Positions 1 to 11,600 are shown, numbered from the stretch's first letter. The stretch is 64,000 nt of DNA from Dehalococcoidia bacterium (GCA_965221295.1 OZ244879.1:877678-941677); one strand, 5' to 3'. Notes: generated from the sequence alone by a model not told the origin. Translations and numbers: made by a program.

Positions 1-1365
1 CGCAGCAGGGGCCATCAGTTGTTGCGCACCGCCCGGCGCAAGTCGGAAGGCAACCTGCCGGCGCTGGTCGTCCTGGGCGTTGGAACCGCGGGCGCCAAGC
101 GGGCGTTGATGTTCCTGCAGCGCATGTCGGAATTGTCGGAGATTGGGAGGGTGCAAAGCGCGATCTTCTACGACTGCAATGAGATAACGGTCAGCTACAT
201 TGGGAGTTTTCTGCGGAAGTTCCTGGGCAAGTCCAGGCCCGGCCGGGGCGTGCAGATATTGTTTCCCAACTACATCCCAGTGGCCAACGGATTCATGCGC
301 GACCCCCGCCTGTTCGAGGAATACGAGGGGCCCATGGAACGCGACATGGACAACGTTGTTGGCCAAATCATGGCCCAATCGGAACGGTCGGGGAGGTCGC
401 CGGAGACCATCATCGAATTCATGAGCTTTTCGGGCCATGCGGCCGTGGGCGGTCGGCTATACCGGAAGCTGCGGGCAGTCTTCCCAGGCGCCGTGATTCT
501 GCCGATACTCAAGCTGCCTGAAGATCACGTTTCCGAGGAATGGACCAGGCGGTACATTTGGGAACGCTTTGAGGAACTGCTGGAGGGATCAGACTGCCTG
601 TTGACCGGACAATCGGGCAGTACTTTCGGGGAAGGGGACGCCAGGTTGGCCACTGGGCTGGCTGGCGTGGAGGTTGCCGATTTTGACGAGGAAGGCGTCG
701 CCAGCAGCCCATTGGCGGCGGCCTGCCAGCGACTGGGCGCCGCATCGGGCGGTTGGCTCGGCATGGCCACGGTAAAGCGAAAGATGCCCGTGGTCAGGAA
801 ATTCGAATGGCTGCGGTTGCCTCCGTGGTGGCGTCAATATGCGGCGGTGGGGCCGGAGGAAGAACTGTCGATGGCGGTGGGCCACGCCATCTGGTCAACG
901 CTGGACCCGCCATCGCAGATAGCCGAGGGCATGAACGACCTGCGCCACGCGCCCCAGGAGGTGGTGGTGTCCCTGCCGGTGCACCCGGAATCGTTGGAGC
1001 CGGTGGCGGCGAGCGCCGCGGAGACGCTGGAGCGCAGCAACCTGTTCAACCAATTCCCCAACATGGACATCGCGTTCAACACGGCCCGGTTCCCAGAGGG
1101 GGTGTCCGAGGAGCCCTATCTTCACGTCACCCGCGTTTACCCGGTGCAGGGGGAGCTGGCTCCGGTGATGGAGATACTGCACCCTGGCCATTCCGCGGAC
1201 CAGCGTCAGGCGTTGGGCGCCCACGAGACCGGGTTCGGTACGTACTACCACCTGGACACCATCGACGATGGCATTCCCATATCCCGCATGTCCCGCGCGG
1301 AGGGACCGGCCGGCCGGCCCCGCGATCCTGAGGAAGAATGGAAACAACACGTGCGCTACATCTAG
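1..1365 (+). CDS. Divergent tubulin/FtsZ/CetZ-like GTPase-fold protein, paralogue A (probably 5'-truncated by the window edge)
   Basis: Frame is open from base 1. Motifs LVVLGVGTAG (T1-like), IFYDCN, NGFMRDP (T3-like) and IIEFMSFSGHAAVGG...ILPILKLP (degenerate T4 and following strand) occur in tubulin order. Collinear with the next ORF. Confidence 0.6.
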   Translation, partial: RSRGHQLLRTARRKSEGNLPALVVLGVGTAGAKRALMFLQRMSELSEIGRVQSAIFYDCNEITVSYIGSFLRKFLGKSRPGRGVQILFPNYIPVANGFMRDPRLFEEYEGPMERDMDNVVGQIMAQSERSGRSPETIIEFMSFSGHAAVGGRLYRKLRAVFPGAVILPILKLPEDHVSEEWTRRYIWERFEELLEGSDCLLTGQSGSTFGEGDARLATGLAGVEVADFDEEGVASSPLAAACQRLGAASGGWLGMATVKRKMPVVRKFEWLRLPPWWRQYAAVGPEEELSMAVGHAIWSTLDPPSQIAEGMNDLRHAPQEVVVSLPVHPESLEPVAASAAETLERSNLFNQFPNMDIAFNTARFPEGVSEEPYLHVTRVYPVQGELAPVMEILHPGHSADQRQALGAHETGFGTYYHLDTIDDGIPISRMSRAEGPAGRPRDPEEEWKQHVRYI

Positions 1366-1419
1366 GGATTTTTCCATAAATCCACCAAATGAGTGTGCGC
1401 AGGTGCGTAGGTAGGATGT

Positions 1420-1449
1420 TTGACACATTCCAACTTTATCTACTATGAT
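1420..1449 (+). promoter_or_regulatory. sigma70-type promoter for paralogue B
   Basis: TTGACA (1420-1425), 18-nt spacer, TATGAT (1444-1449) in an AT-rich intergenic stretch. Confidence 0.6.
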
Positions 1450-1625
1450 GACTGTGGCTAACAAGGCAACCGTCGATTACGACGAAAAGGATTTACCATA
1501 ACTGAATCTTCGCGCGACTTGCGCTTCGACCACACGTGACGCCTCTGCGCGGGCTAAAACGTGCAGGACGAACTACCAAGGCGGAGTCGCGGATTACTCA
1601 AACTGGCAAGGGGGTTGCAACAGCT

Positions 1626-3146
1626 ATGCCGCCGAAATTTCAGAATCGAACTTTTCACATCCGCAGAAACAGCCCCCATCGTCTTGGTTCGCAACAAGAC
1701 CACAATCGGGATGGCGTCCCCCCGCCCATCGTGTCGGTGGCGGTGGGAACCGCCGGTTACAAGCGCAGTTGGAAATGGGCCCAACGGATGGGCGAAGCCG
1801 GGGTGCTGGACCGGGTGCAGAGCCTTTTGATGTATGACTGCAACCAGGGCAGCATCGACGCCATCGACTCCGAAGCGCAGGCCATGCGACGGCGGGATCG
1901 GCTCGCCAACCTGCCGATTATCGTACCTGGCTACCTGCCCAAGGTGGACGGCTTCCTTCGCGATCCCAACGCCTACAAGGATTACTTTGGGCTGATCCAC
2001 CGCGACATGGAACGGATGGTGGATACCATCGCGCGCCGGTCGGAAGAGGTGGGCTCGCCTCCGCAGGTGATCCTCGAATGGCTTGGCTTCGGCGGCCACG
2101 CCAAGTTGGGCGGCGTGCTTCACCAAATGCTGCTGGAGAGGTTCCCGGACGCCCTGTTCTTCCCGATTATGCTCATGCCCCGCGAGCACGTGCTGGAAGA
2201 AAACATGCGACGGGAGACTTGGGGCGCCTACGAAGAAACCATGGGGTTGGCGCGTCCCCGGTCTGTCGGCAGCTCCGTCGGCGACCAGGGGGAATTGAGG
2301 GGCTACCCGGCCCTGATCACCGACAACCGGTTGTCTCGCGACTACCAGCGGCTGGACAATAAACTGGCAATCGGCCTGGCTTCCATGGAAGCCGGTATGC
2401 GTGACCGCATCGACAGCGGTTCGCTGTCTGAAACCGTGGCCAGCTTCGGGGGGTACTCGAATGGCTGGTTCGGGATGCGGGTGATGAGCCGGCGGCTGGA
2501 TGTGAACAACGTGCCTCAGTTGAGCCCGCGATGGCTGCCCAGGCGTATGCGTCGCTCCGAGTTGGTGGTGGTCAACGACGACGCCAAGCAGCTCTCCTGG
2601 GCCACCAAAAAGGCCATGTGGGACATACTGGACCCTAACCGCCGGGACATGAACCTGGCCAACCACGACTTCGTGCACGGCGAGTCCGTGATGCGCATGG
2701 TGATAACGCTCCCCGTGGAACCGGACGGCCTGGCGGAAATCGAAAACGACGTGCGCGACCAGCTTGACCGAGAGGACTTCGAGCTGGCGTACCCCAACCT
2801 CACGTGGTCCTTCGCTTCCGCCAACTTCCAGGAGAACCCCGGCGACCGGCACATGCACGTTTCGCTGCTGTACCCGCTTCAAACGGAGAAGATTTACAGC
2901 ATCACGGACATCATGTACGACACCTACACGCCGTCGCACATGGCCGACGGCCTGCAGCAAACCGGATTCGGCACGGGCCACTTCATGGCGTCCAACGGAT
3001 ACAACGCTGAAACCCAGTTTGGGTACGTGTCCCGGGGCGCTCAGGTCAGAAACGACCGGGAACAGCAGAACCGGGCCGCCGCTGTCGCCCAGGGTCGGCC
3101 GTATGGCAACGGCCACGAGAACGGCGTAGGCGGATTCCGTTCGTAG
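1626..3146 (+). CDS. Divergent tubulin/FtsZ/CetZ-like GTPase-fold protein, paralogue B
   Basis: IVSVAVGTAG, LMYDCN, DGFLRDP, ILEWLGFGGHAKLGG, FFPIMLMP, LITDN, IDSGSLSETV and GWFGM fall in the order of the FtsZ/CetZ T1-T7 elements. ATG 1626 follows a G-rich RBS; the ORF track starts at GTG 1536. Confidence 0.65.
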   Translation: MPPKFQNRTFHIRRNSPHRLGSQQDHNRDGVPPPIVSVAVGTAGYKRSWKWAQRMGEAGVLDRVQSLLMYDCNQGSIDAIDSEAQAMRRRDRLANLPIIVPGYLPKVDGFLRDPNAYKDYFGLIHRDMERMVDTIARRSEEVGSPPQVILEWLGFGGHAKLGGVLHQMLLERFPDALFFPIMLMPREHVLEENMRRETWGAYEETMGLARPRSVGSSVGDQGELRGYPALITDNRLSRDYQRLDNKLAIGLASMEAGMRDRIDSGSLSETVASFGGYSNGWFGMRVMSRRLDVNNVPQLSPRWLPRRMRRSELVVVNDDAKQLSWATKKAMWDILDPNRRDMNLANHDFVHGESVMRMVITLPVEPDGLAEIENDVRDQLDREDFELAYPNLTWSFASANFQENPGDRHMHVSLLYPLQTEKIYSITDIMYDTYTPSHMADGLQQTGFGTGHFMASNGYNAETQFGYVSRGAQVRNDREQQNRAAAVAQGRPYGNGHENGVGGFRS

Positions 3147-3172
3147 GCTGGCGGCGCTGCATCCGCTTTGCC

Positions 3173-3204
3173 AAAAAAGGGGCGACCGCAAGGTCGCCCC
3201 TTTT
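3173..3204. terminator. Bidirectional rho-independent terminator
   Basis: AAAAAAGGGGCGACC-GCAA-GGTCGCCCCTTTT perfect hairpin with A and T tails, between convergent genes. Confidence 0.9.
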
Positions 3205-3227
3205 CGTTACGCGACGCTGGTCGTTTG

Positions 3228-4358
3228 CTAGGTTTGTGCGGCGACCGGAGCGGCTCGCCGCGCCTTGTCCCGGAAATGGGGGATGATGTACTTTCCAAAT
3301 AGGCGCAGAGATTCCATCACCTCTTCGTGGGCAACCGGGCCTACCTGGAACAGGGGCATGATCTCGTCCACCCCCATGCGCTCGTAGTCCTCGATGTACT
3401 TGATGCAGTCGTCGGGGTTTCCGATGCAGAAGCGTCCGCCGTCCTCGATCAAGGAGCGGGAGCTGACTTCATCGGCGCGGGCGGTGTCGGCTTTGACGGC
3501 GCGTTGGTAGTGCCACTGGTAATCGGGCGGCACGCGGGCCGGATCGTAACCCTGCCAGACGTAGGAGTCGCGGATGCGCTGCTGCTCCCGGTACCAATCG
3601 ATTATGGTTTCGGCGCGCTCGAAAGCCTTTTGCCTGTTTTCCATGCACAGACCCACGGTATTGCCGGCAACCCGGGGATATACCAGCTTGGTTGCCGGTT
3701 CGGGGTCTTGGATGGCGTCCCGGTAGACTCGGATGAGGTCTTCGGCACGGTCGAGACCGACGCTGGTTTGGGCCAGACAGCCCAATCCCTGGCGTCCTAC
3801 CTTCTCGGCGGTGAACTCCTGGCTGACCGCCTGCCAGATCGGCGGATGCGGTTTCTGCACGGGTTTGGGGATGATTTCCCGGGGCGGGAATTGGTAATGC
3901 TTGCCCTGATAGGAAAACATCTCTTCAGTCCAGGCCCCCGGGATGATCTGGAGGTATTCTTCGACCATCTCCGACACATCGGGCAGGTCGGCTCCGTAGG
4001 GAATCATCTGGTAAGGGTAGCCGGATCGGCCTATGCCCAGGTCGACCCGCCCGTTGGACAGGATGTCCAGCGTGGCCATGCGTGACGCGACGTGCAGAGG
4101 GTGATGCAGGGGCGCCAGAACCACCGCGATGCCCAAACGCATATTGACGGTTCGCTGGCTGATGGCGGCCAGGGTGATGTCTGGGGCGCTGGAATGCGAC
4201 CATTCCGATCGGAAGTGGTGCTCCACGAACCAGACCGACGTCATGCCAATCTCTTCGGCGAAGCAAACCTGTTCCATCATTTCGTGAAATTTCCGGGATT
4301 CACTGCCAGCGTCCCAAGGCTTGGGCGCCTGGATTTGGTAAAAAAGGCCGAGGTCCAT
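3228..4358 (-). CDS. LLM-class flavin-dependent oxidoreductase (luciferase-like monooxygenase)
   Basis: VWFVEHHF, LDILSNGRVDLGIGR, PKPVQKPHPPIW; ATG 4358 preceded by CAGGAG. Confidence 0.9.
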   Translation of the reverse strand: MDLGLFYQIQAPKPWDAGSESRKFHEMMEQVCFAEEIGMTSVWFVEHHFRSEWSHSSAPDITLAAISQRTVNMRLGIAVVLAPLHHPLHVASRMATLDILSNGRVDLGIGRSGYPYQMIPYGADLPDVSEMVEEYLQIIPGAWTEEMFSYQGKHYQFPPREIIPKPVQKPHPPIWQAVSQEFTAEKVGRQGLGCLAQTSVGLDRAEDLIRVYRDAIQDPEPATKLVYPRVAGNTVGLCMENRQKAFERAETIIDWYREQQRIRDSYVWQGYDPARVPPDYQWHYQRAVKADTARADEVSSRSLIEDGGRFCIGNPDDCIKYIEDYERMGVDEIMPLFQVGPVAHEEVMESLRLFGKYIIPHFRDKARRAAPVAAQT

Positions 4359-4467
4359 AAATTTACGCTCCTGGAGGCGGTTGATCAACGTATGGTATCA
4401 AAAGAATCATAAACTATGTCCAAATAATTTCATAGGTTCTGGTCATAGGTTCAGGACACCGTTTCAA

Positions 4468-4497
4468 TTGACACTATCGAAAGGGCAGCCGTAGAAT
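4468..4497 (+). promoter_or_regulatory. sigma70-type promoter
   Basis: TTGACA-N18-TAGAAT upstream of the small Lrp-domain gene; TCATAGGTTC direct repeat at 4430 and 4443 just upstream. Confidence 0.55.
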
Positions 4498-4572
4498 TGG
4501 CGGGCGATTGATCGGCGCGCGATTCCCAACGCGCCCGGCCCTGAGCCGCCCGATCAACGAAAACCAAGGAGA

Positions 4573-4818
4573 ATGAAAGCCATGGCAACGAAAGCCTTTT
4601 TGCTGGTTGAAACCGCAGTGGGCCGTACGCGGGACGTAGCAACTACTCTGAGAGGGCTCGACGGCATCGAGTCAGTGGACGTGGTGACCGGGCCCTACGA
4701 CATCATTGCGATCATATCCGGGGACGACATGTCGGTGGTCGGCGGACTGGTGACCGAAAAAATCCATACGGTGGTGGGCGTGGTGCGCACCGTTACCTGC
4801 GTGGCGGTGGACGCTTGA
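4573..4818 (+). CDS. Stand-alone Lrp/AsnC ligand-binding (RAM) domain protein
   Basis: VTGPYDIIA and GVVRTVT motifs; AAGGAG RBS; ~80 aa with no HTH. Confidence 0.85.
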   Translation: MKAMATKAFLLVETAVGRTRDVATTLRGLDGIESVDVVTGPYDIIAIISGDDMSVVGGLVTEKIHTVVGVVRTVTCVAVDA

Positions 4819-4881
4819 CCAATCCGGCAACATCCAATCCGAAAATAACCAACACGGACGGGACGGGAACAGGAGGCTTCG

Positions 4882-6057
4882 GTGGAGTATCGCTTTACCC
4901 AGGATGACGACCAATTTCGGGGCGAGTTGCGCCGTTTCATTGAGTCGGAACTGCCCGACGATTGGGAGGGCGGCGGACGCTGGCCGGAAGAGTGCGACTG
5001 GGATTTTACGATGCACCTGAGGGGCCGGCTGGCCGAGCGGGGTTGGCTGACCATGCATTGGCCGGAGGAATACGGCGGCCAGGACGCTTCCCCAGTGCGG
5101 TCGGCCATCTACAACGAAGAGCTGGCCTACCTGCGGGCTCCCGGTCGGGATATTTTCGGCGTGCGTATGCTGGGCCCCACCCTGATGATTCACGGCAGCG
5201 AGGAACAGAAGCAGGCTCATCTGCCCCCCATCGCCCGGGGAGAAATTCAGTGGTGCCAGGGGTACAGCGAACCGGAATCGGGGTCGGATCTGGCGTCGCT
5301 GAGCGCCAGGGCCGTGCGGGACGGCGATGAGTACGTGATCAACGGCGCGAAGATCTGGACCACTTTGGCCCACCGGTCGGACTGGATCATGTGCCTGGCC
5401 CGGACGGACCCGGACGCTCCCCGTCACCGGGGCATCAGTTTCATCCTGGTGGACATGAAATCCCCCGGCGTGGAAGTGCGGCCGGTGATCAACATGGCGG
5501 GCGGGCACGAGTTCAACCAGGTGATATTCGACAACGTGCGAGTGCCCTCCAGCAACTTGGTGGGCGAAGAGAACCGCGGTTGGTACGTGGCGGTGACGCT
5601 GCTGGACTTCGAGCGCTCGGGCATCGACTACTCGGCCATCGCCCGGAGGTTGCTGGACGACACCCGGCATTACGCCAGCGGGATCTCGCGAAATGGAACG
5701 AAGGCGACCGGGTTGCCCTGGGTGCGCAACCTGCTGGCCGACCGCTACGTGGAATGCGAAGTGGCCCGCCTGATGGCTTACAACGTGGCCTGGATGCAGG
5801 GGGAGGGGCTGGTTCCCAACAAGGAGGCGTCCATGAGCAAAGCCTTCGGCAGCGAGACGTTGCATCGCTCTGCGAACGCGGCGCTGGAGGTGGCCGGCCT
5901 GCCGGGCGCGCTGGCCCGGGACGAATCCCGCGCTCCGTTGAAAGGGAGGCTGCCCGAAAACTGGATGATCAGCTTTTCCCACAAGATCGCCGGCGGCACG
6001 TCTGAAGTGCAGCGTGGCATCATTGCCGGACGCGGCCTGGGCCTGCCGCGAGGGTAG
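4882..6057 (+). CDS. Acyl-CoA dehydrogenase family protein
   Basis: WCQGYSEPESGSDLASL, INGAKIWTT, IAGGTSEVQRGII; GTG start after AGGAGG. Confidence 0.92.
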   Translation: MEYRFTQDDDQFRGELRRFIESELPDDWEGGGRWPEECDWDFTMHLRGRLAERGWLTMHWPEEYGGQDASPVRSAIYNEELAYLRAPGRDIFGVRMLGPTLMIHGSEEQKQAHLPPIARGEIQWCQGYSEPESGSDLASLSARAVRDGDEYVINGAKIWTTLAHRSDWIMCLARTDPDAPRHRGISFILVDMKSPGVEVRPVINMAGGHEFNQVIFDNVRVPSSNLVGEENRGWYVAVTLLDFERSGIDYSAIARRLLDDTRHYASGISRNGTKATGLPWVRNLLADRYVECEVARLMAYNVAWMQGEGLVPNKEASMSKAFGSETLHRSANAALEVAGLPGALARDESRAPLKGRLPENWMISFSHKIAGGTSEVQRGIIAGRGLGLPRG

Positions 6058-6175
6058 GGCGACTCTCGGGCGCTGGGCCGCTGGGCCATTCAGGCATAGG
6101 GAGAGACTTCGTTTGCTCAAGGGCTGGCGAGGCAGCGAACGGACTCCCGGGCTGAGGATTGGGAGCCGCGACCCG

Positions 6176-6517
6176 TTACAGGTCCAGAGATGCGAAGATG
6201 GCCGCTTCCTCCGGGGTGAGTTCCTGCATGGCCCGGCGGCAGCGGTCAAGGCAGCGAAAGATGCTGCGCGGCGTTACCGAGAACCGTTGCGCGGCTTCGT
6301 TCACCGACAAACCCTCCCCATGGATCGCCGCGGCGATGCGAAAGTCCTGCGCCAGCCGGCGATGGGTGATGAACCAAACCATGTCATCGAACTTGCAGCG
6401 GGACATTGGGCACTCCAGACACGCTTGCGCCACTTCGCATCCCGTATCAGCATAGTAGTCAAAGCCCGATTCTCTGCATCGGCGATTGCCGGTGTCGATT
6501 GTGTTTGCTCCGTACAT
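6176..6517 (-). CDS. Small protein with a 4-Cys cluster (C-x5-C-x2-C-x4-C) and a C-terminal helix-turn-helix
   Basis: DTGCEVAQACLECPMSRCKFD then GLSVNEAAQRFSVTPRSIFR. ATG 6517 chosen because a promoter lies at 6553-6582. Confidence 0.75.
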   Translation of the reverse strand: MYGANTIDTGNRRCRESGFDYYADTGCEVAQACLECPMSRCKFDDMVWFITHRRLAQDFRIAAAIHGEGLSVNEAAQRFSVTPRSIFRCLDRCRRAMQELTPEEAAIFASLDL

Positions 6518-6527
6518 GAGCGCTCCG

Positions 6528-6582
6528 AAACGTGCGTTCTGTATAGTGCCATATTGTAGAACCTGCGTTCCATAGTTGTCAA
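6528..6582 (-). promoter_or_regulatory. sigma70 promoter with two LexA (GAAC-N4-GTTC) SOS boxes
   Basis: Minus strand TTGACA (6582-6577), 18-nt spacer, TACAAT (6558-6553). GAAC-CTGC-GTTC at 6559-6570 sits in the spacer; AAAC-GTGC-GTTC at 6528-6539. Confidence 0.75.
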
Positions 6583-7189
6583 CCGTCGCCAAAGGCCCGC
6601 CAAGGCTGTTACAGAGCGCGACTGTCGCAGAAGTCGTGGGGGTTCATTCCCCTGGCGTCCTGAGGCAAGGCTGCCGGGCGCCGCCATTGTTGGAACCCCC
6701 TGAGCAGAACGGGGCGTTGAAATTTGACCAGCCCGGAACCTCGCGTGTACCCATTACCCTGGCGATGTTGTTGCGCGGAGCGGCGTACCCTGGCGCCATC
6801 ACGAGGAGCATTGCCCACATCAGCCGCTGCGACGGGCGGGAGCGACGCGGCAAATCCGCGCCGACACTCGCCGCTGCGTGAAGCAGGGTCGAACGCCCCG
6901 TGCGGGGCGGACGCCGGGATCGCCGCGCTTTTTTCGCGATGCCGGTTTGCCGAAACTGGGTGTGCGTGAGCTCCCGGAATACATAACCATTGGACGACAC
7001 GCTTCCCGCCTATGGTCTATTCTTCGGCTTCGACCAGGCTGGTACAGGTTCCGCTGGTACAGGTTCCGATGATTCTGGCCGGACCGGATGGAGCGCTGGC
7101 GCCCCGCCTGAACCTGCCAGGGCAGAGCCGTTTGCGGATGCGTCGGGAAATCTCAATGTGCTAACATCATTAGGCAAGGTGGTGGTTCT

Positions 7190-7594
7190 ATGCTGAGATT
7201 TCTCTGGCCGTTGCTGTTGATGTTCGGCCCACAATTGGCGCCGAGGGTGATCAAGTTCGTTCGCGCGGTGTGGCTCCTGCATAAGGACCATCGGGTGAAC
7301 GTGCTGCTCAAACTGCTGGTGCCCCTGGCGTTGGTTTACGCGGTCCTTCCCGTTGACCTGATCCGGGACCGAATTCCCTACGGGTTGGGACGTTACGATG
7401 ACATCATCATCCTGGGGTTGGCGCTTTTCATCTTCTGGAAACTCTGCCCGCCGGCGGTGGTGCGGGAACACATGGGGGAACCACCGCCGCCTCGTCCGGA
7501 GGACCGTGACCCGAGCAGCGTGGTGGATGGTGAAGCCCGACCCAAGGACGACCGGGAAAATCAAAGAGACCGGGAAAACCAACGAGGCAGTTGA
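7190..7594 (+). CDS. YkvA/DUF1232 family membrane protein
   Basis: LVYAVLPVDLIRDRIPYGLGRYDDIIIL signature. Confidence 0.85.
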   Translation: MLRFLWPLLLMFGPQLAPRVIKFVRAVWLLHKDHRVNVLLKLLVPLALVYAVLPVDLIRDRIPYGLGRYDDIIILGLALFIFWKLCPPAVVREHMGEPPPPRPEDRDPSSVVDGEARPKDDRENQRDRENQRGS

Positions 7595-8820
7595 TGTATG
7601 ACGGCCGAAGCGAGGGCATATCGCTTTACGTGCACGTCCCGTTCTGCCTGAGCAAATGCCCCTACTGCGATTTCAATACCTATCAGGGAATTGAATCTCA
7701 GTTTGACGATTACCGCGAGGCGGTAACGAGCGAGCTGGAGGCTTGGGGACGGGCGCTGGGGCATCCGCCCGTGAACACCATATTCCTGGGAGGCGGCACA
7801 CCGTCTTACCTGCCCACCGGGGATATTGGTCAGATATTGGATGGCATTGCCGAGGCCTACCCGGTGCGTGAAGGCGCAGAGGTAACCGCCGAGTGCAATC
7901 CCAATGACCTGACGGCGGCGAAGTGCGTGGAACTGCGGGCCGCGGGGGTAAATCGCATCAGCATGGGCGTCCAAAGCATGGACAATGGCCTGTTGGCGCT
8001 GCTCGGACGTCGGCACGATGCTACGGAGGCCATCGACGCGCTGAACGCCTGCCGCCTGGCTGGATTCGACAACGTGAATTTGGACCTGATGTATGGGTTG
8101 CCTCACCAGTCGCTGGAGCAATGGCGAGACACGGTGGAGCGGACGATTACGCAGGCTCCGGAGCACATCTCCATGTATTCCCTGACCCTGGAGGACGGCA
8201 CGCCACTGAAGCGCTGGGTCCAACAGGGAGCCTTGCCGGAGCCTGATGCCGACCTAGCCGCCGACATGTACGACCTGGCGCGTCGGATGCTCCGAGACGC
8301 TGGTTATCGCCATTACGAGATCAGCAACTGGAGTCGAGAGGGCAGGGAGTCGAAACACAACCTGGCGTATTGGCGCAACTTGCAATGGCTGGGCGTCGGG
8401 CCTGGGGCACATTCTTCGCTGCGCGCGGCGGACGCTGTGGGTGGCGTCCGGTTCTGGACGGCGCGGTCGCCGCGAGAGTACGCCAGCAAGGCGGCGGAAT
8501 GGGCAGCGATCGCGACCACTTGGCCAGAGGCGACGGCCCAGCGAATCGAGTCGGTTCCGACCGTTGACGGCTTGGAGGCCATAGACGAAGGTACCGCCGC
8601 GGCGGAAACGATGTTCTTGGGGCTGCGCCTGTTGGATGGGATGAATCTGGCGGAAGCGTCGGCCAGGATGGGCATCGACCTGGCGGCGCGCTACGCAAGG
8701 GAGATTGACGAGTTATTGGGCGATGGGTTGCTGGTGAGGGAGGTGGACGGACGCCTGCGGCTGGCAGAGAAGGCGTACCTGCTGGCAAACCAAGTGTTCA
8801 CCCGGTTTTTGGTAGAATAG
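7594..8820 (+). CDS. hemW: Radical SAM heme chaperone HemW (HemN-like)
   Basis: LYVHVPFCLSKCPYCDFN, IFLGGGTPS, HYEISNWS, HNLAYW. Confidence 0.9.
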   Translation: MYDGRSEGISLYVHVPFCLSKCPYCDFNTYQGIESQFDDYREAVTSELEAWGRALGHPPVNTIFLGGGTPSYLPTGDIGQILDGIAEAYPVREGAEVTAECNPNDLTAAKCVELRAAGVNRISMGVQSMDNGLLALLGRRHDATEAIDALNACRLAGFDNVNLDLMYGLPHQSLEQWRDTVERTITQAPEHISMYSLTLEDGTPLKRWVQQGALPEPDADLAADMYDLARRMLRDAGYRHYEISNWSREGRESKHNLAYWRNLQWLGVGPGAHSSLRAADAVGGVRFWTARSPREYASKAAEWAAIATTWPEATAQRIESVPTVDGLEAIDEGTAAAETMFLGLRLLDGMNLAEASARMGIDLAARYAREIDELLGDGLLVREVDGRLRLAEKAYLLANQVFTRFLVE

Positions 8821-8827
8821 CGGCCTG

Positions 8828-9118
8828 ATGTGGGAGTCTATATCAAGACTTATAGGGTTAATCCCCTGGCTCATTGGCCAACTGCCAGAGCGCGCGAGGC
8901 CTGCGGGCGTGGCGGCTGTTCTAAGTATGATGGTATTTTTAGCGTTTGCGGTTGTCAGATTGGCTTTGGGTCTTCCGGACGACGTACCGAGAGCAGTGAC
9001 TTGTGCAATGGGCGTTGCCTTGATTGCGCTTACCGTCGTCGCGTTAATTTGTGTCTTGGTCTTCTCCGTCATCGCTGTTTGGTCCGGGCTATCTTCAAAG
9101 CCCTCGCAACGTCCTTGA
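8828..9118 (+). CDS. Hypothetical small membrane protein
   Basis: Two hydrophobic stretches; starts 8 bp after hemW; 3' end overlaps the convergent ORF; no clear RBS. Confidence 0.35.
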   Translation: MWESISRLIGLIPWLIGQLPERARPAGVAAVLSMMVFLAFAVVRLALGLPDDVPRAVTCAMGVALIALTVVALICVLVFSVIAVWSGLSSKPSQRP

Positions 9119-9449
9119 TCGTCCACACAATCAAGACGACAGCAGCGGCGACCCACGCGATTATGCCCACAGTTACGATTATCGCTCCCGCCAAGACTGC
9201 GTTTTCCCCATCCAAACTGCCGCTCAGTTTGGGGAGTGCGTAAGCTCCGAACAGCACTATCAACATGCCGATTCCGGCAACCCCGGCGGCGACATAGAAG
9301 GCGCGATTCAGCAGGGAATAACCGTCCGTCAAGCGTTGTTCCCCGCCCCCAACTCCGGTAGCCTGCGCATCAGGGTTTGACGGCGCTTCAGTTTCCGGTG
9401 AGGGACCTTTAGCGTCAATTGGGTCGTATTGCACATCGGATGTAGCCAT
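9069..9449 (-). CDS. Hypothetical two-TM membrane protein
   Basis: CAGGAGG RBS before ATG 9449; two hydrophobic helices and a basic C-terminus. Confidence 0.6.
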   Translation of the reverse strand: MATSDVQYDPIDAKGPSPETEAPSNPDAQATGVGGGEQRLTDGYSLLNRAFYVAAGVAGIGMLIVLFGAYALPKLSGSLDGENAVLAGAIIVTVGIIAWVAAAVVLIVWTIKDVARALKIARTKQR

Positions 9450-9616
9450 TTCGCCCGCCTCCTGAGCTCCATCTTACCACCTGGCGAAACGCACCGACAA
9501 ACGCCACCGGCAGGCCTGCCGCGCGTCGCCTGTGCTAAACTGCCGTTGGCGTCCGCCGGCGCGGAACGCTTTGCCAACTTTCCCATTGATTGCAGACTCC
9601 CGGCGGAGGTTCCACT

Positions 9617-10843
9617 ATGGCCGTACAATCCTACACCATCAACGTGCCTGATGACGTTCTCGAAGACCTAAAGCATCGGCTGGCCCACGCGCGGTGGCCC
9701 GACGAAATACCCGGGGCCAAGTGGGATTACGGGTCAAACCTTGACTACATCAAAGAGCTGGTGGCCTATTGGCGTGATGGTTACGACTGGCGCAAAGCCG
9801 AAGCCGGCCTCAACGCATTCGCCAATTTCTACGCCACCATAGATGGCCAGGGCATCCACTTCATCCACGAGAAGGGCAAAGGCCCCAACCCCATGCCCAT
9901 CATCGTAACCCACGGGTGGCCAGGTTCGATCTACGAGATGCACAAGATCATCCCTATGCTGACTGACCCGGCGAGCCACGGTGGAGATCCGGCGGACTCT
10001 TTCGACGTAGTTGTGCCTTCCATGCCGGGATACGGTTTCAGCGCGCAAACTCGCGAACGCGGCGTGAATACCCGTAGGATTGCGGAGCTATGGGACAAAC
10101 TGATGGCCAACGAACTTGGCTACAAGCGCTACGCGGCTCAGGGCGGCGACTGGGGCGCGGGCGTAACCGCTCGCCTCGGGTTTCATCATTCCGAACACGT
10201 GCTGGGCATCCACACCACGTCGGTGACGCAGGCCATCCCCTACCAGGGCGCGAGCCTGCAGGGGCTAGGGATGCGCGAGCGGCTGGAGCAAGTGATCGGT
10301 ACGCCTCAAGGCGGCTACCGGCGCGATTTCGCAGCTATCCTGTCGGACGACGAGCTGGCGATGATCGATCAGCGGGTTTCCTGGGCGGCGGCCGAGGGCG
10401 GGTACGCTCACATCCAGGGCACCAAGCCTCAAACGTTGGCTTACGGGCTGAACGACTCGCCGGTGGGATTGTGCGCCTGGATAGTCGAGAAATACCGAAC
10501 ATGGAGCGACTGCAACGGCGACGTGGAAAGCGTCTACACGAAGGATGACCTGCTGACCACGGTGATGATCTACTGGGCCACCCAGACCATCAACTCCAGC
10601 GTCCGTTTGTACTATGAGAACGGACGGACGCCGTGGTACTTCGGGCCGGAAGACCGAATCAACGTGCCGTGCGCCATCGCGGTATTTCCCAAGGAGTTGT
10701 CCACGCCGCCGCGCTCATGGGCCGAGCGGACCTATAACGTGCAACGTTGGACCCAGATGGATAGCGGGGGCCATTTTGCCGCCCTGGAGAAGCCGGCGGA
10801 GCTGGTGGCCGATATGCGCGAATTCTTCCGAGGACTGCGGTAG
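9617..10843 (+). CDS. Epoxide hydrolase (EHN N-terminal domain, alpha/beta hydrolase)
   Basis: THGWPGS, AQGGDWG nucleophile motif, GGHFAALE; GGAGG RBS. Confidence 0.92.
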   Translation: MAVQSYTINVPDDVLEDLKHRLAHARWPDEIPGAKWDYGSNLDYIKELVAYWRDGYDWRKAEAGLNAFANFYATIDGQGIHFIHEKGKGPNPMPIIVTHGWPGSIYEMHKIIPMLTDPASHGGDPADSFDVVVPSMPGYGFSAQTRERGVNTRRIAELWDKLMANELGYKRYAAQGGDWGAGVTARLGFHHSEHVLGIHTTSVTQAIPYQGASLQGLGMRERLEQVIGTPQGGYRRDFAAILSDDELAMIDQRVSWAAAEGGYAHIQGTKPQTLAYGLNDSPVGLCAWIVEKYRTWSDCNGDVESVYTKDDLLTTVMIYWATQTINSSVRLYYENGRTPWYFGPEDRINVPCAIAVFPKELSTPPRSWAERTYNVQRWTQMDSGGHFAALEKPAELVADMREFFRGLR

Positions 10844-10886
10844 AATCACAGTGGCGAACTTCCCTGCGGGAGGAGTGGGAAACTTC

Positions 10887-11600
10887 ATGATGGGACCTAC
10901 GGAGTGGACGGTCATCGCCACGGGCATCGCGCTGTTCGTGGCCCTTGGTAGCCTGATCAGGCTCAGCAACTCGACCACTAGGCATGAGTTGAGAGCCGAA
11001 ATCGCCAACGTCAGAATGGAAATCGCCCGGCTCAAGACCGAACTAGAAAGCAAAATCGCCGAGCTCAAGTCGGAACTGACAGGCGACATTGCCGGCGCCA
11101 AAGCCGACAACAACGCTACGCGCGCTGAGCTGAAAGCTGATATAGCCGGAATCAGGACAGACATGGCCGATCTCAGGTCGGACTTCAAAGCCGCAATAGC
11201 CGAACTCGGAATCGAGCTGAAAGGCGAGATTGCCTCGGCCAAGGCCGAAAACAACGCAACGCGCGCTGAGTTGAAAGCCGAGATTGCCGCCGCCAGAGCA
11301 GATGCCAAGGCCGACAACAACGCAACGCGCGCTGAGCTGAAAGCCGATATTGGAGAACTCGGGGCGAAACTGAAGGGCGAGATTGCCGGCGCCAGAGCGG
11401 ATGCCAAGGCCGACGCGGCAAGCTTGAGACAGGAGACGCGGGACAATCGCGCCGAAATCATCACCAACCGGCGCTTGTTGGGACGTTTCGCCCTGCACCG
11501 GCACGGTGAAGACGGTATGCCCATGGCTCCACTCACCGACGCGTTAGAACCCCCCAACGGCAACGGAGAATCCGCCAGCAACGAAAACGGAAGCGACTGA
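10887..11600 (+). CDS. Membrane-anchored coiled-coil repeat protein (DUF1640/CCDC90-like)
   Basis: N-terminal TM helix then repeated AKA(D/E)NNATRAELKA(D/E)I units; GGAGGAG upstream of ATG 10887. Confidence 0.7.
   Translation: MMGPTEWTVIATGIALFVALGSLIRLSNSTTRHELRAEIANVRMEIARLKTELESKIAELKSELTGDIAGAKADNNATRAELKADIAGIRTDMADLRSDFKAAIAELGIELKGEIASAKAENNATRAELKAEIAAARADAKADNNATRAELKADIGELGAKLKGEIAGARADAKADAASLRQETRDNRAEIITNRRLLGRFALHRHGEDGMPMAPLTDALEPPNGNGESASNENGSD

Follow-up and report, generated by a model that had tools for sequence, protein, structure and literature searches.

Two neighbouring genes at the beginning of a 64,000-nucleotide stretch from a Dehalococcoidia bacterium (GCA_965221295.1, OZ244879.1:877678-941677; this whole stretch is called the window) encode paralogues, here named A and B, that are predicted to have the tubulin-superfamily fold. 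The reading we prefer, with a probability of roughly 40% and drawing on sequence signals and predicted structures, is that they form a filament without a role in division. B would be its main subunit, an abundant GTPase that polymerises; A would be present in few copies, capping or seeding one filament end and probably tying the filament to the membrane. Tentatively, the pair might represent a two-component tubulin system that evolved independently from a CetZ-like ancestor, with a His-based phosphate loop, a bulk subunit and a non-catalytic paralogue for nucleation, capping and membrane anchoring, and that serves as a shape skeleton in a cell without wall or MreB.

AlphaFold2 models of B and A, made from alignments of 88 and 97 rows, had predicted local distance difference test values of 84.3 and 86.6 and predicted template modelling scores of 0.85 and 0.87, and each was predicted to consist of a GTPase domain, a central helix H7 and an alpha/beta C-terminal domain. 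When the models were compared with 48,161 representative chains, the B model gave Z scores of 25.1 to tubulin (root-mean-square deviation 3.9, 336 residues aligned), 24.9 to BtubA, 24.8 to CetZ2, 20.3, 19.0 and 17.7 to TubZ, 18.3 to FtsZ and about 16 to PhuZ, and the A model gave 25.8 to the CetZ structure 3zid (deviation 4.4, 311 residues aligned), 25.3 to BtubA, 25.1 to tubulin and 19.0 to FtsZ. Non-tubulins reached at most 10.9 with B and 10.4 with A, by which a non-tubulin Rossmann fold (SDR and the like), named beforehand as a refuting outcome, was excluded. A Foldseek search with the B model matched tubulins, BtubB and CetZ1 at E values of about 1e-12 to 2e-12, and structural identities to the known superfamily members were 9-16%. 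Given that CetZ, BtubA and tubulin were tied at Z 24-26 for both models and that FtsZ was found below them at 18-19, a complete two-domain tubulin fold is predicted that is nearer to CetZ and tubulin than to FtsZ. With alignments of more than 300 residues at these scores, the superfamily assignment made in the initial annotation was upheld by the predictions.

The sequence libraries were almost silent about this family. Pfam gave no match at all in A or B and no tubulin-type family in 41 relatives, and NCBIfam and PHROGs gave no tubulin-type match in 88 family proteins. A sequence search of the PDB returned nothing significant with a single protein or with a 41-row profile; the 88-row profile matched BtubB weakly (E 0.27) and an encapsulin-like 'bacteriocin' chain (E 0.008), the latter being rejected as it found no support in the fold searches. 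Comparison of the family profile with an FtsZ profile of the genus, a weak profile of 10 near-identical rows, gave no aligned core. A feature search of the ESM Atlas pointed to tubulin-domain clusters at 0.88-0.91, which we treat as a lead only. Misato has a T4 loop that is likewise diverged; a Misato-like reading was examined only by the Pfam scan, which gave no match. The features discussed below, all on the + strand of the window, are as follows.

1-1365, +: paralogue A; the open reading frame begins outside the window; tubulin fold predicted; without the H8 catalytic acid and without a Shine-Dalgarno site.
424-453, +: rewritten T4 signature loop of A (SFSGHAAVGG, residues 150-159).
703-720, +: degenerate T7/H8 region of A (SSPLAA), in which Ala248 takes the position of Glu269 of B.
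772-852, +: beta-hairpin of A from strand S7 to helix H9, at the inferred M-loop position, with the tip F-x-W-x-x-x-P-P-W-W.
1420-1449, +: sigma-70-type promoter-like site of B (TTGACA-N18-TATGAT, 11/12), kept in all A-B gaps.
1608-1614, +: Shine-Dalgarno-like site of B (AAGGGGG), found at 53/53 loci.
1626-3146, +: paralogue B, 506 amino acids; tubulin fold predicted; T6 DN, Asp244 of H7 and the H8 acid Glu269 kept.
2085-2114, +: rewritten T4 signature loop of B (GFGGHAKLGG, residues 154-163).
2313-2369, +: T6 (LITDN) and the start of helix H7 (YQRLDNKLA) of B.
2409-2438, +: T7/H8 of B (IDSGSLSETV), with Glu269 at 2430-2432 aligned to the BtubB/CetZ-like catalytic acid.
2499-2585, +: hairpin of B at the M-loop position, basic and hydrophobic, variable, Trp not conserved.
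3173-3208, +: GC-rich hairpin between A and T runs, a likely bidirectional intrinsic terminator common to the pair and a convergent gene.

B lies 3' of A on the same strand after a gap of 260 nucleotides. Paralogue A has 462 amino acids and its ATG is located 24 nucleotides upstream of the window start (G000:C1:877654); it shares 32% identity with B across 446 aligned columns (E 3e-66). Every motif named in the initial annotation was located in the two proteins: in A, in addition to the T4 loop, VGTAG at residues 35-39, YDCN at 65-68, GFMRDP at 105-110, PILKLP at 176-181, WLRLPPWWRQY at 278-288 and TGFGT at 418-422; in B, VGTAG at 40-44, YDCN at 70-73, GFLRDP at 109-114, PIMLMP at 180-185, LITDN at 230-234, YQRLDNKLA at 240-248, IDSGSLSETV at 262-271, PRWLPRRMRR at 301-310 and TGFGT at 446-450.

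A and B differed at the catalytic site. Residues were counted in 47 A and 47 B sequences (the window and 46 of the 52 paired loci; L008, L010, L011, L023, L026 and L053 were left out) and in 27 single-gene relatives, and the loops were brought into register by a profile comparison with 16 CetZ-like proteins of Dehalococcoidia (E 7e-4, probability 27), by predicted secondary structure and by the weak profile match to BtubB. T1 (G-T-A-G), T2 (Y-D-C-N) and T3 (G-F-x-R-D-P) have been kept, and the Asp of H7 is present in 47/47 sequences of A and of B alike. In T4, the signature GGGTG(S/T)G is replaced by G-G-H-A-x-L-G, with His in 88/88 rows of the family alignment; in B this is the invariant His158, accompanied by an equally invariant Lys160. 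The acid in H8 that follows T7, which aligns with the catalytic position of E254 in alpha-tubulin (PMC13394414) and has its equivalent in E218 of T7 in CetZ1 (bioRxiv 10.1101/2024.04.08.588506), is Glu in 47/47 B sequences and Asp or Glu in 25/27 single-gene relatives, whereas it is acidic in 0/47 A sequences (V25, A14, S5, G2). Of the active/inactive division of labour proposed in the initial annotation, the asymmetry was supported at this catalytic position. The further claim that A has lost the DN and T7-like residues needs correction at T6, where the change is not a plain loss: DN has become TQ and the Asn position is Gln in 44/47. The second Gly of T4 in A is Ser or Ala in 44/47, and the aromatic residue preceding the H7 Asp is found in 8/47 A sequences. 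Among the core elements of A, conservation is lowest in T7 and H8 (means of 0.60 and 0.64, compared with 0.75 and 0.86 in B), and D375, Q379 and E383 in the H10 motif of B (D-V-x-D-Q-L-x-R-E) are invariant in B and lost in A. H10 of A has conserved small residues of its own (A344 invariant, A347 and A348 at least 90%).

The signals for expression also differed between the two genes. A promoter-like site scoring at least 9/12, with an invariant TTGAC and located 175-238 nucleotides before B, was present in 53/53 gaps compared with 353/5300 shuffled gaps; the site in the window, close to the sigma-70 consensus, had been missed in the initial annotation. A strong Shine-Dalgarno site precedes B at 53/53 loci and A at 0/52, the hydrolase gene upstream of A serving as control (42/42 with a parseable start). 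A weaker promoter-like site was found upstream of A at 20/52 loci and, where present, ended 46-83 nucleotides before the ATG, by which leaderless translation of A was excluded; one further promoter-like match ended 15 nucleotides before the ATG. The A-B gap varied between 218 and 1222 nucleotides, and at one locus (L041:6778-8000) an insertion sequence (IS) element with a transposase split over two frames lies between A and the B promoter. The 5' leader of B (1450-1625 in the window) was about 150-210 nucleotides long across loci and poorly conserved in sequence. Terminator-like sites were found after B in 27/54 loci and between A and the B promoter in only 2/53 gaps, so that read-through from A into B is possible. 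In the window the hairpin after B has a folding energy of -27.6 kcal/mol (z -5.8, with 0/200 shuffled sequences equally stable), in agreement with the strong terminator assigned there earlier, and was absent from the output of a simple terminator scanner. From these signals, much more B than A would be predicted.

Searches of GTDB genomes gave 60 loci, all from Dehalococcoidia, Chloroflexi/Chloroflexota or SAR202 by title (bin87 being listed as SAR202 from a sponge microbiome, PMC5649159). A lay directly upstream at 52 of the 53 B-type loci (in one case as a partial gene at the contig end), and the remaining B-type locus starts 317 nucleotides from a contig end; the other 7 loci carry a third, unpaired type (C). 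All 54 genomes of the window's genus, which are marine, SAR202-type Dehalococcoidia, had matches and each had at least two, compared with 8/149 genomes in the other genera of the taxonomic family, where the genes are single and sometimes broken (62/203 for the whole taxonomic family). No A-type gene without B was found among the 203 genomes listed. Wider samples gave 4/301 genomes for the order, 2/401 for the class and 2/401 for the phylum, the own genome being counted in each and a miss meaning that nothing was found in the genomes searched. When 1.84 billion representatives were searched with a profile, 95 matches were obtained, and a metagenome scan gave 4 loci, of which the 3 examined (L121 was left out) were single genes. 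From these counts, pairing is a fixed trait of one genus and not of the whole protein family, and the conserved pairing expected earlier holds within the genus, while outside it only single genes were seen. The median ratio of nonsynonymous to synonymous substitution rates in 15 chosen pairs was 0.11 for A, 0.06 for B and 0.07 for the hydrolase, indicating purifying selection; with this ratio and an intact gene at all loci, a pseudogene state of A was excluded. In a quick tree A, B and C each formed one clade, with B sister to C and A on a long branch, and all three were far from the Dehalococcoidia CetZ-like proteins, a very long branch lying between them. As long branches meet in this tree, neither the root nor the order of events is fixed by it.

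The Trp/Arg-rich insert described in the initial annotation was found in both proteins, but only in A is it conserved. Both models show it as a beta-hairpin, located after S7 and before H9 at the M-loop position, and the profile alignment pairs it with the hydrophobic-basic insert of CetZ-like proteins. F276, P282, P283 and W285 are invariant in A and W278 is present in 46/47, so the hairpin tip is conserved there; the counterpart in B has a Trp in 14/47. CetZ1 has a long M-loop (PMC9856176), and when its tip was made less hydrophobic, foci left the envelope in vivo (bioRxiv 10.1101/2024.04.08.588506). Together with the liposome result of the same study given below, this means that the hairpin may bind the membrane, the adjacent subunit or a partner. 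Two further membrane hints came from relatives: in 3 of 22 family proteins scored (P0129, P0133 and P0143) the C-terminal domain contains, outside the insert, a hydrophobic hairpin of two 19-residue segments, and at 5/19 single-gene loci, three of them close kin, a neighbouring gene encodes a vWA protein that is hydrophobic at its N-terminus.

The genus has a separate division protein. Exactly one PF00091 gene was present in 54/54 genomes of the genus, and in the own genome (95.6% complete) it is an ordinary ftsZ behind ftsA at another location, which agrees with the earlier claim that A and B, themselves without PF00091, are distinct from the division FtsZ. The neighbours of the pair are an alpha/beta hydrolase gene upstream and a convergent luciferase-like monooxygenase gene downstream, and the earlier statement that no dcw genes are adjacent was correct. 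No transpeptidase match was found in the own genome, and there were only two weak MreB_Mbl matches, one of which is ftsA and the other in a 672-amino-acid frame. MinE is present, and no Tubulin_2 or CetZ_C gene was found in the own genome, while CetZ_C matched in 47/251 genomes of the class and in the H. volcanii control.

Based on these observations, a mechanism can be proposed in which T1-T3, T6, the H7 Asp and the new T4 loop (His158, Lys160) would form the GTP-binding site of B and B would polymerise head to tail, with Glu269 completing the active site of the neighbouring subunit. A would keep much of the nucleotide-binding face, with the opposite face (T7, H8 and the H10 motif) lost or relaxed, so that only one of its sides might take up B, with A located at the minus end. 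Gamma-tubulin offers the analogy: a low-copy paralogue that turns its nucleotide face to the bulk subunit and caps the minus end. The likeness is functional only, as gamma-tubulin scored Z 22.7-23.9, below CetZ and BtubA, and no ring-complex partners are present. The invariant aromatic hairpin of A might then fix this filament end to the membrane or to a partner protein. The cellular task would most likely be to shape or organise the envelope in a cell where penicillin-binding proteins and MreB were not detected, comparable to the role of CetZ in wall-less archaea.

Several points weigh against this proposal. T4 lacks the Thr and two of the Gly residues of GGGTG(S/T)G and the T7 motif N-x-D is absent across the family, B included, so that GTP binding and hydrolysis are not guaranteed, and in A the nucleotide pocket itself is altered (TQ at T6, Ser or Ala in T4, the aromatic before the H7 Asp). 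The loop register leans on the weak CetZ link and on predicted secondary structure. The alanines in H10 of A could, judging from their conservation, form a new fixed dimer interface and not a dead face. A missing Shine-Dalgarno site does not prove low expression of A, and the change to the CetZ1 tip left liposome binding in vitro unaltered (bioRxiv 10.1101/2024.04.08.588506). The conservation sample consists of 54 genomes of a single genus and the upstream hydrolase gene is equally syntenic (52 loci; L001:14736-15536), for which reasons little can be concluded about a functional link from adjacency alone. A complex prediction of B(1-490) and A(1-430) with two GTP from paired 47-row alignments gave scores of 0.00 and 0.00, with controls not folded, and is no evidence either way.

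The best surviving alternative, though an unlikely one, is a 1:1 alternating co-polymer in which the logic of alpha- and beta-tubulin evolved independently, B providing the catalytic Glu and every second GTP site being silent. The complete split of the acid between B and A is the asymmetry seen between E254 of alpha-tubulin and K254 of beta-tubulin and in AtubA/B (PMC13394414), and the invariant gene order, the rarity of terminator-like sites before the B promoter and the conserved small residues in H10 of A are compatible with such a polymer. The BtubAB-like logic suggested in the initial annotation, however, fits poorly with a B gene that has its own promoter and Shine-Dalgarno site at every locus next to an A gene without the latter, and with a gap of hundreds of nucleotides that tolerates an IS element (L041), unlike the arrangement in which the stop of atubA overlaps the ribosome-binding site of atubB (PMC13394414). 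Furthermore, the silent position in A is variable (V/A/S/G), no one residue having become fixed there, the quick tree does not join A and B as sisters, and the members outside the genus are single.

The same separation of expression signals, including the weaker promoter-like site before A, would be expected if A and B were tubulin-like proteins that act independently in different tasks, in the manner of CetZ1 and CetZ2, and were adjacent through conserved gene order only. The equal synteny of the hydrolase, the relatives that work as single genes and the identity of only 32% are in line with this. Nevertheless, A has lost the acid kept by nearly all single-gene relatives, for which reason a self-sufficient dynamic A filament is unlikely, and no A-type gene was seen without B in the 203 genomes listed; we consider independence of the two rather improbable.

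The neighbourhoods of the unpaired relatives, in which 66 of 179 neighbouring open reading frames were scanned, were diverse. At L060, L061 and L062 (about 6800-9600) and L071:4929-7780 the relatives stand beside vWA proteins with an N-terminal hydrophobic segment; those of L060-L062 contain a coiled coil, an arrangement that recalls FtsZl1 operons and possibly represents a second system with a membrane partner. In another genus, the relative lies directly behind minD-minE (L073:5894-9207 and L081:7061-9706; 2/19 single-gene loci) and is stop-broken or split in both cases, with a vWA gene downstream as well in L073. Some family members are fusion proteins, with a response-regulator receiver at the C-terminus (P0127, L119:828-2534) or with a membrane segment and a trypsin-like domain (P0165). 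At L072:524-5007 and L075:3398-7591 the genes around the relatives encode a small protein of similar N-terminus, a GAF-domain protein and a subtilase. Copies of the third type lie in mobile-looking regions at L058/L059 (about 4200-9300), L080 and L056, beside genes for a UvrD-like helicase and a Holliday-junction resolvase (L058), a type IV secretion system pilin (L056) and a Toprim protein, and one genome has near-identical third-type repeats. Very distant relatives occur in other Chloroflexota (L082:7803-9173, P0199, P0202); T4 of L082 reads GFGGS, and one of the three stands beside LuxR-type and conjugation coupling genes. Elsewhere in the window, an open reading frame at 10715-11600 (+) has repeated helical units of the type A-E-L-K-A-D/E-I-A and an N-terminal hydrophobic segment.

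Such fusions and the vWA or GAF and subtilase neighbours, together with the lack of both GGGTG(S/T)G and the T7 N-x-D across the family, would suit a tubulin-fold scaffold or sensor without a GTP-driven filament, in which the His-containing T4 binds another ligand or none and the protein acts as a membrane adaptor or signalling module. This explanation, which we hold to be improbable, is weakened by the conservation in register, around the predicted pocket, of T1 G-T-A-G, T2 D-C-N, T3 G-F, the T6 DN, the H7 Asp/Asn and the H8 acid, a pattern to be expected of proteins that still bind a guanine nucleotide and make a head-to-tail contact. A motor for DNA segregation of the TubZ/PhuZ kind, taken over by the genus from a mobile element, is very improbable: the patchy distribution and the extra copies near phage-like or conjugation genes (L058, L056; one repeated in a genome) are in its favour, but the pair has a constant position on the chromosome, flanked by metabolic genes and without a gene for a DNA-binding adaptor, Z scores to TubZ/PhuZ are 16-21 compared with 24-26 to CetZ and tubulin, and 0/104 candidate stretches in IMG/VR (two patterns used) were confirmed as relatives.

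Compared with known systems, and as far as the models go, A and B belong to a new family of the tubulin superfamily that falls outside the definitions of FtsZ, CetZ, Btub/tubulin, FtsZl1 and TubZ. B and the single-gene relatives have T1, T2, T3, T6 and the H7 Asn/Asp in register, and A has TQ at T6 yet keeps the H7 Asp, while the T4 signature is replaced throughout. Diverged superfamily members without motifs are already known (PMC2875224), so the missing signature lowers membership of the named families and not of the superfamily. Division FtsZ differs in PF00091, in its dcw context and in distribution, given the 2/401 phylum genomes with the present family. CetZ (H. volcanii CetZ1/CetZ2, 4b46/4b45; M. 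thermophila, 3zid) resembles A and B in the predicted two-domain fold, in the non-division role alongside FtsZ that is proposed for them and in a long, hydrophobic loop predicted where the M-loop lies; a weak profile match in register from T1 to T7 was obtained with CetZ-like proteins from other Dehalococcoidia. However, 0/41 family members match PF00091 or CetZ_C (PF21011), T4 reads GFGGHA and not GGGTGSG, structural identity is 11-12%, and the conserved N-terminal strand, the C-terminal GFG motif and the fixed two-gene arrangement set the A/B family apart from CetZ. The CetZ-like proteins in Dehalococcoidia reported in a PF00091-based collection (Santana-Molina et al., PMC9871819) have CetZ_C and a normal signature and form a separate group.

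With BtubA/BtubB of Prosthecobacter, Asgard AtubA/B and eukaryotic alpha/beta-tubulin, the pair shares the predicted fold (Z 23-26), tandem paralogues and a catalytic acid after T7 in one partner only. It differs in the low identity (9-16%), the absent tubulin signature and the poor BtubB profile match, in having single-gene relatives and paralogues that are not sister clades, and in what appears from the sequence to be a separate promoter and unequal ribosome-binding sites in place of a tight operon. FtsZl1 and FtsZl2, which were found through the signature loop GGGTG(S/T)G (Makarova and Koonin 2010, PMC2875224), are likewise divergent FtsZ-like proteins additional to FtsZ; vWA membrane-protein neighbours, typical of FtsZl1, occur at the 5 single-gene loci and not beside the A-B pair, and FtsZl2 similarly has few informative neighbours. 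The A/B family has no match to Tubulin_2 (PF13809), no long coiled coil and no signature loop, is not proteobacterial, and is predicted to have a complete tubulin C-terminal domain, which FtsZl1 as defined in PMC2875224 lacks. TubZ and PhuZ share the fold, low-confidence C-terminal tails and an occurrence in mobile-looking regions with some accessory copies, whereas A and B are chromosomal core genes with a rewritten T4 and lower Z to this group, no TubR/centromere module was seen, and no adaptor gene at the site and no tubulin PHROG match in the 88 members were found. No description of the A/B family was found in the literature, supplements and subscription papers being outside the coverage.

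Surveys of the superfamily have collected members through PF00091 (PMC9871819) or the GGGTG(S/T)G signature (PMC2875224). Both routes miss the A/B family, for which the complete fold is nevertheless predicted. The family is a natural case in which to ask whether GTP use requires the signature loop, and both proteins look soluble and expressible. The pair would be a second, independent case of catalytic and non-catalytic specialisation of paralogues, which bears on the origin of alpha-, beta- and gamma-tubulin. If A indeed caps or anchors filaments of B, bacteria would possess in these two proteins a minimal nucleated cytoskeleton of the tubulin type, and if the two-component system evolved independently, a gamma-tubulin-like or alpha/beta-like division of labour would have arisen outside the clade of eukaryotic and Asgard tubulins.

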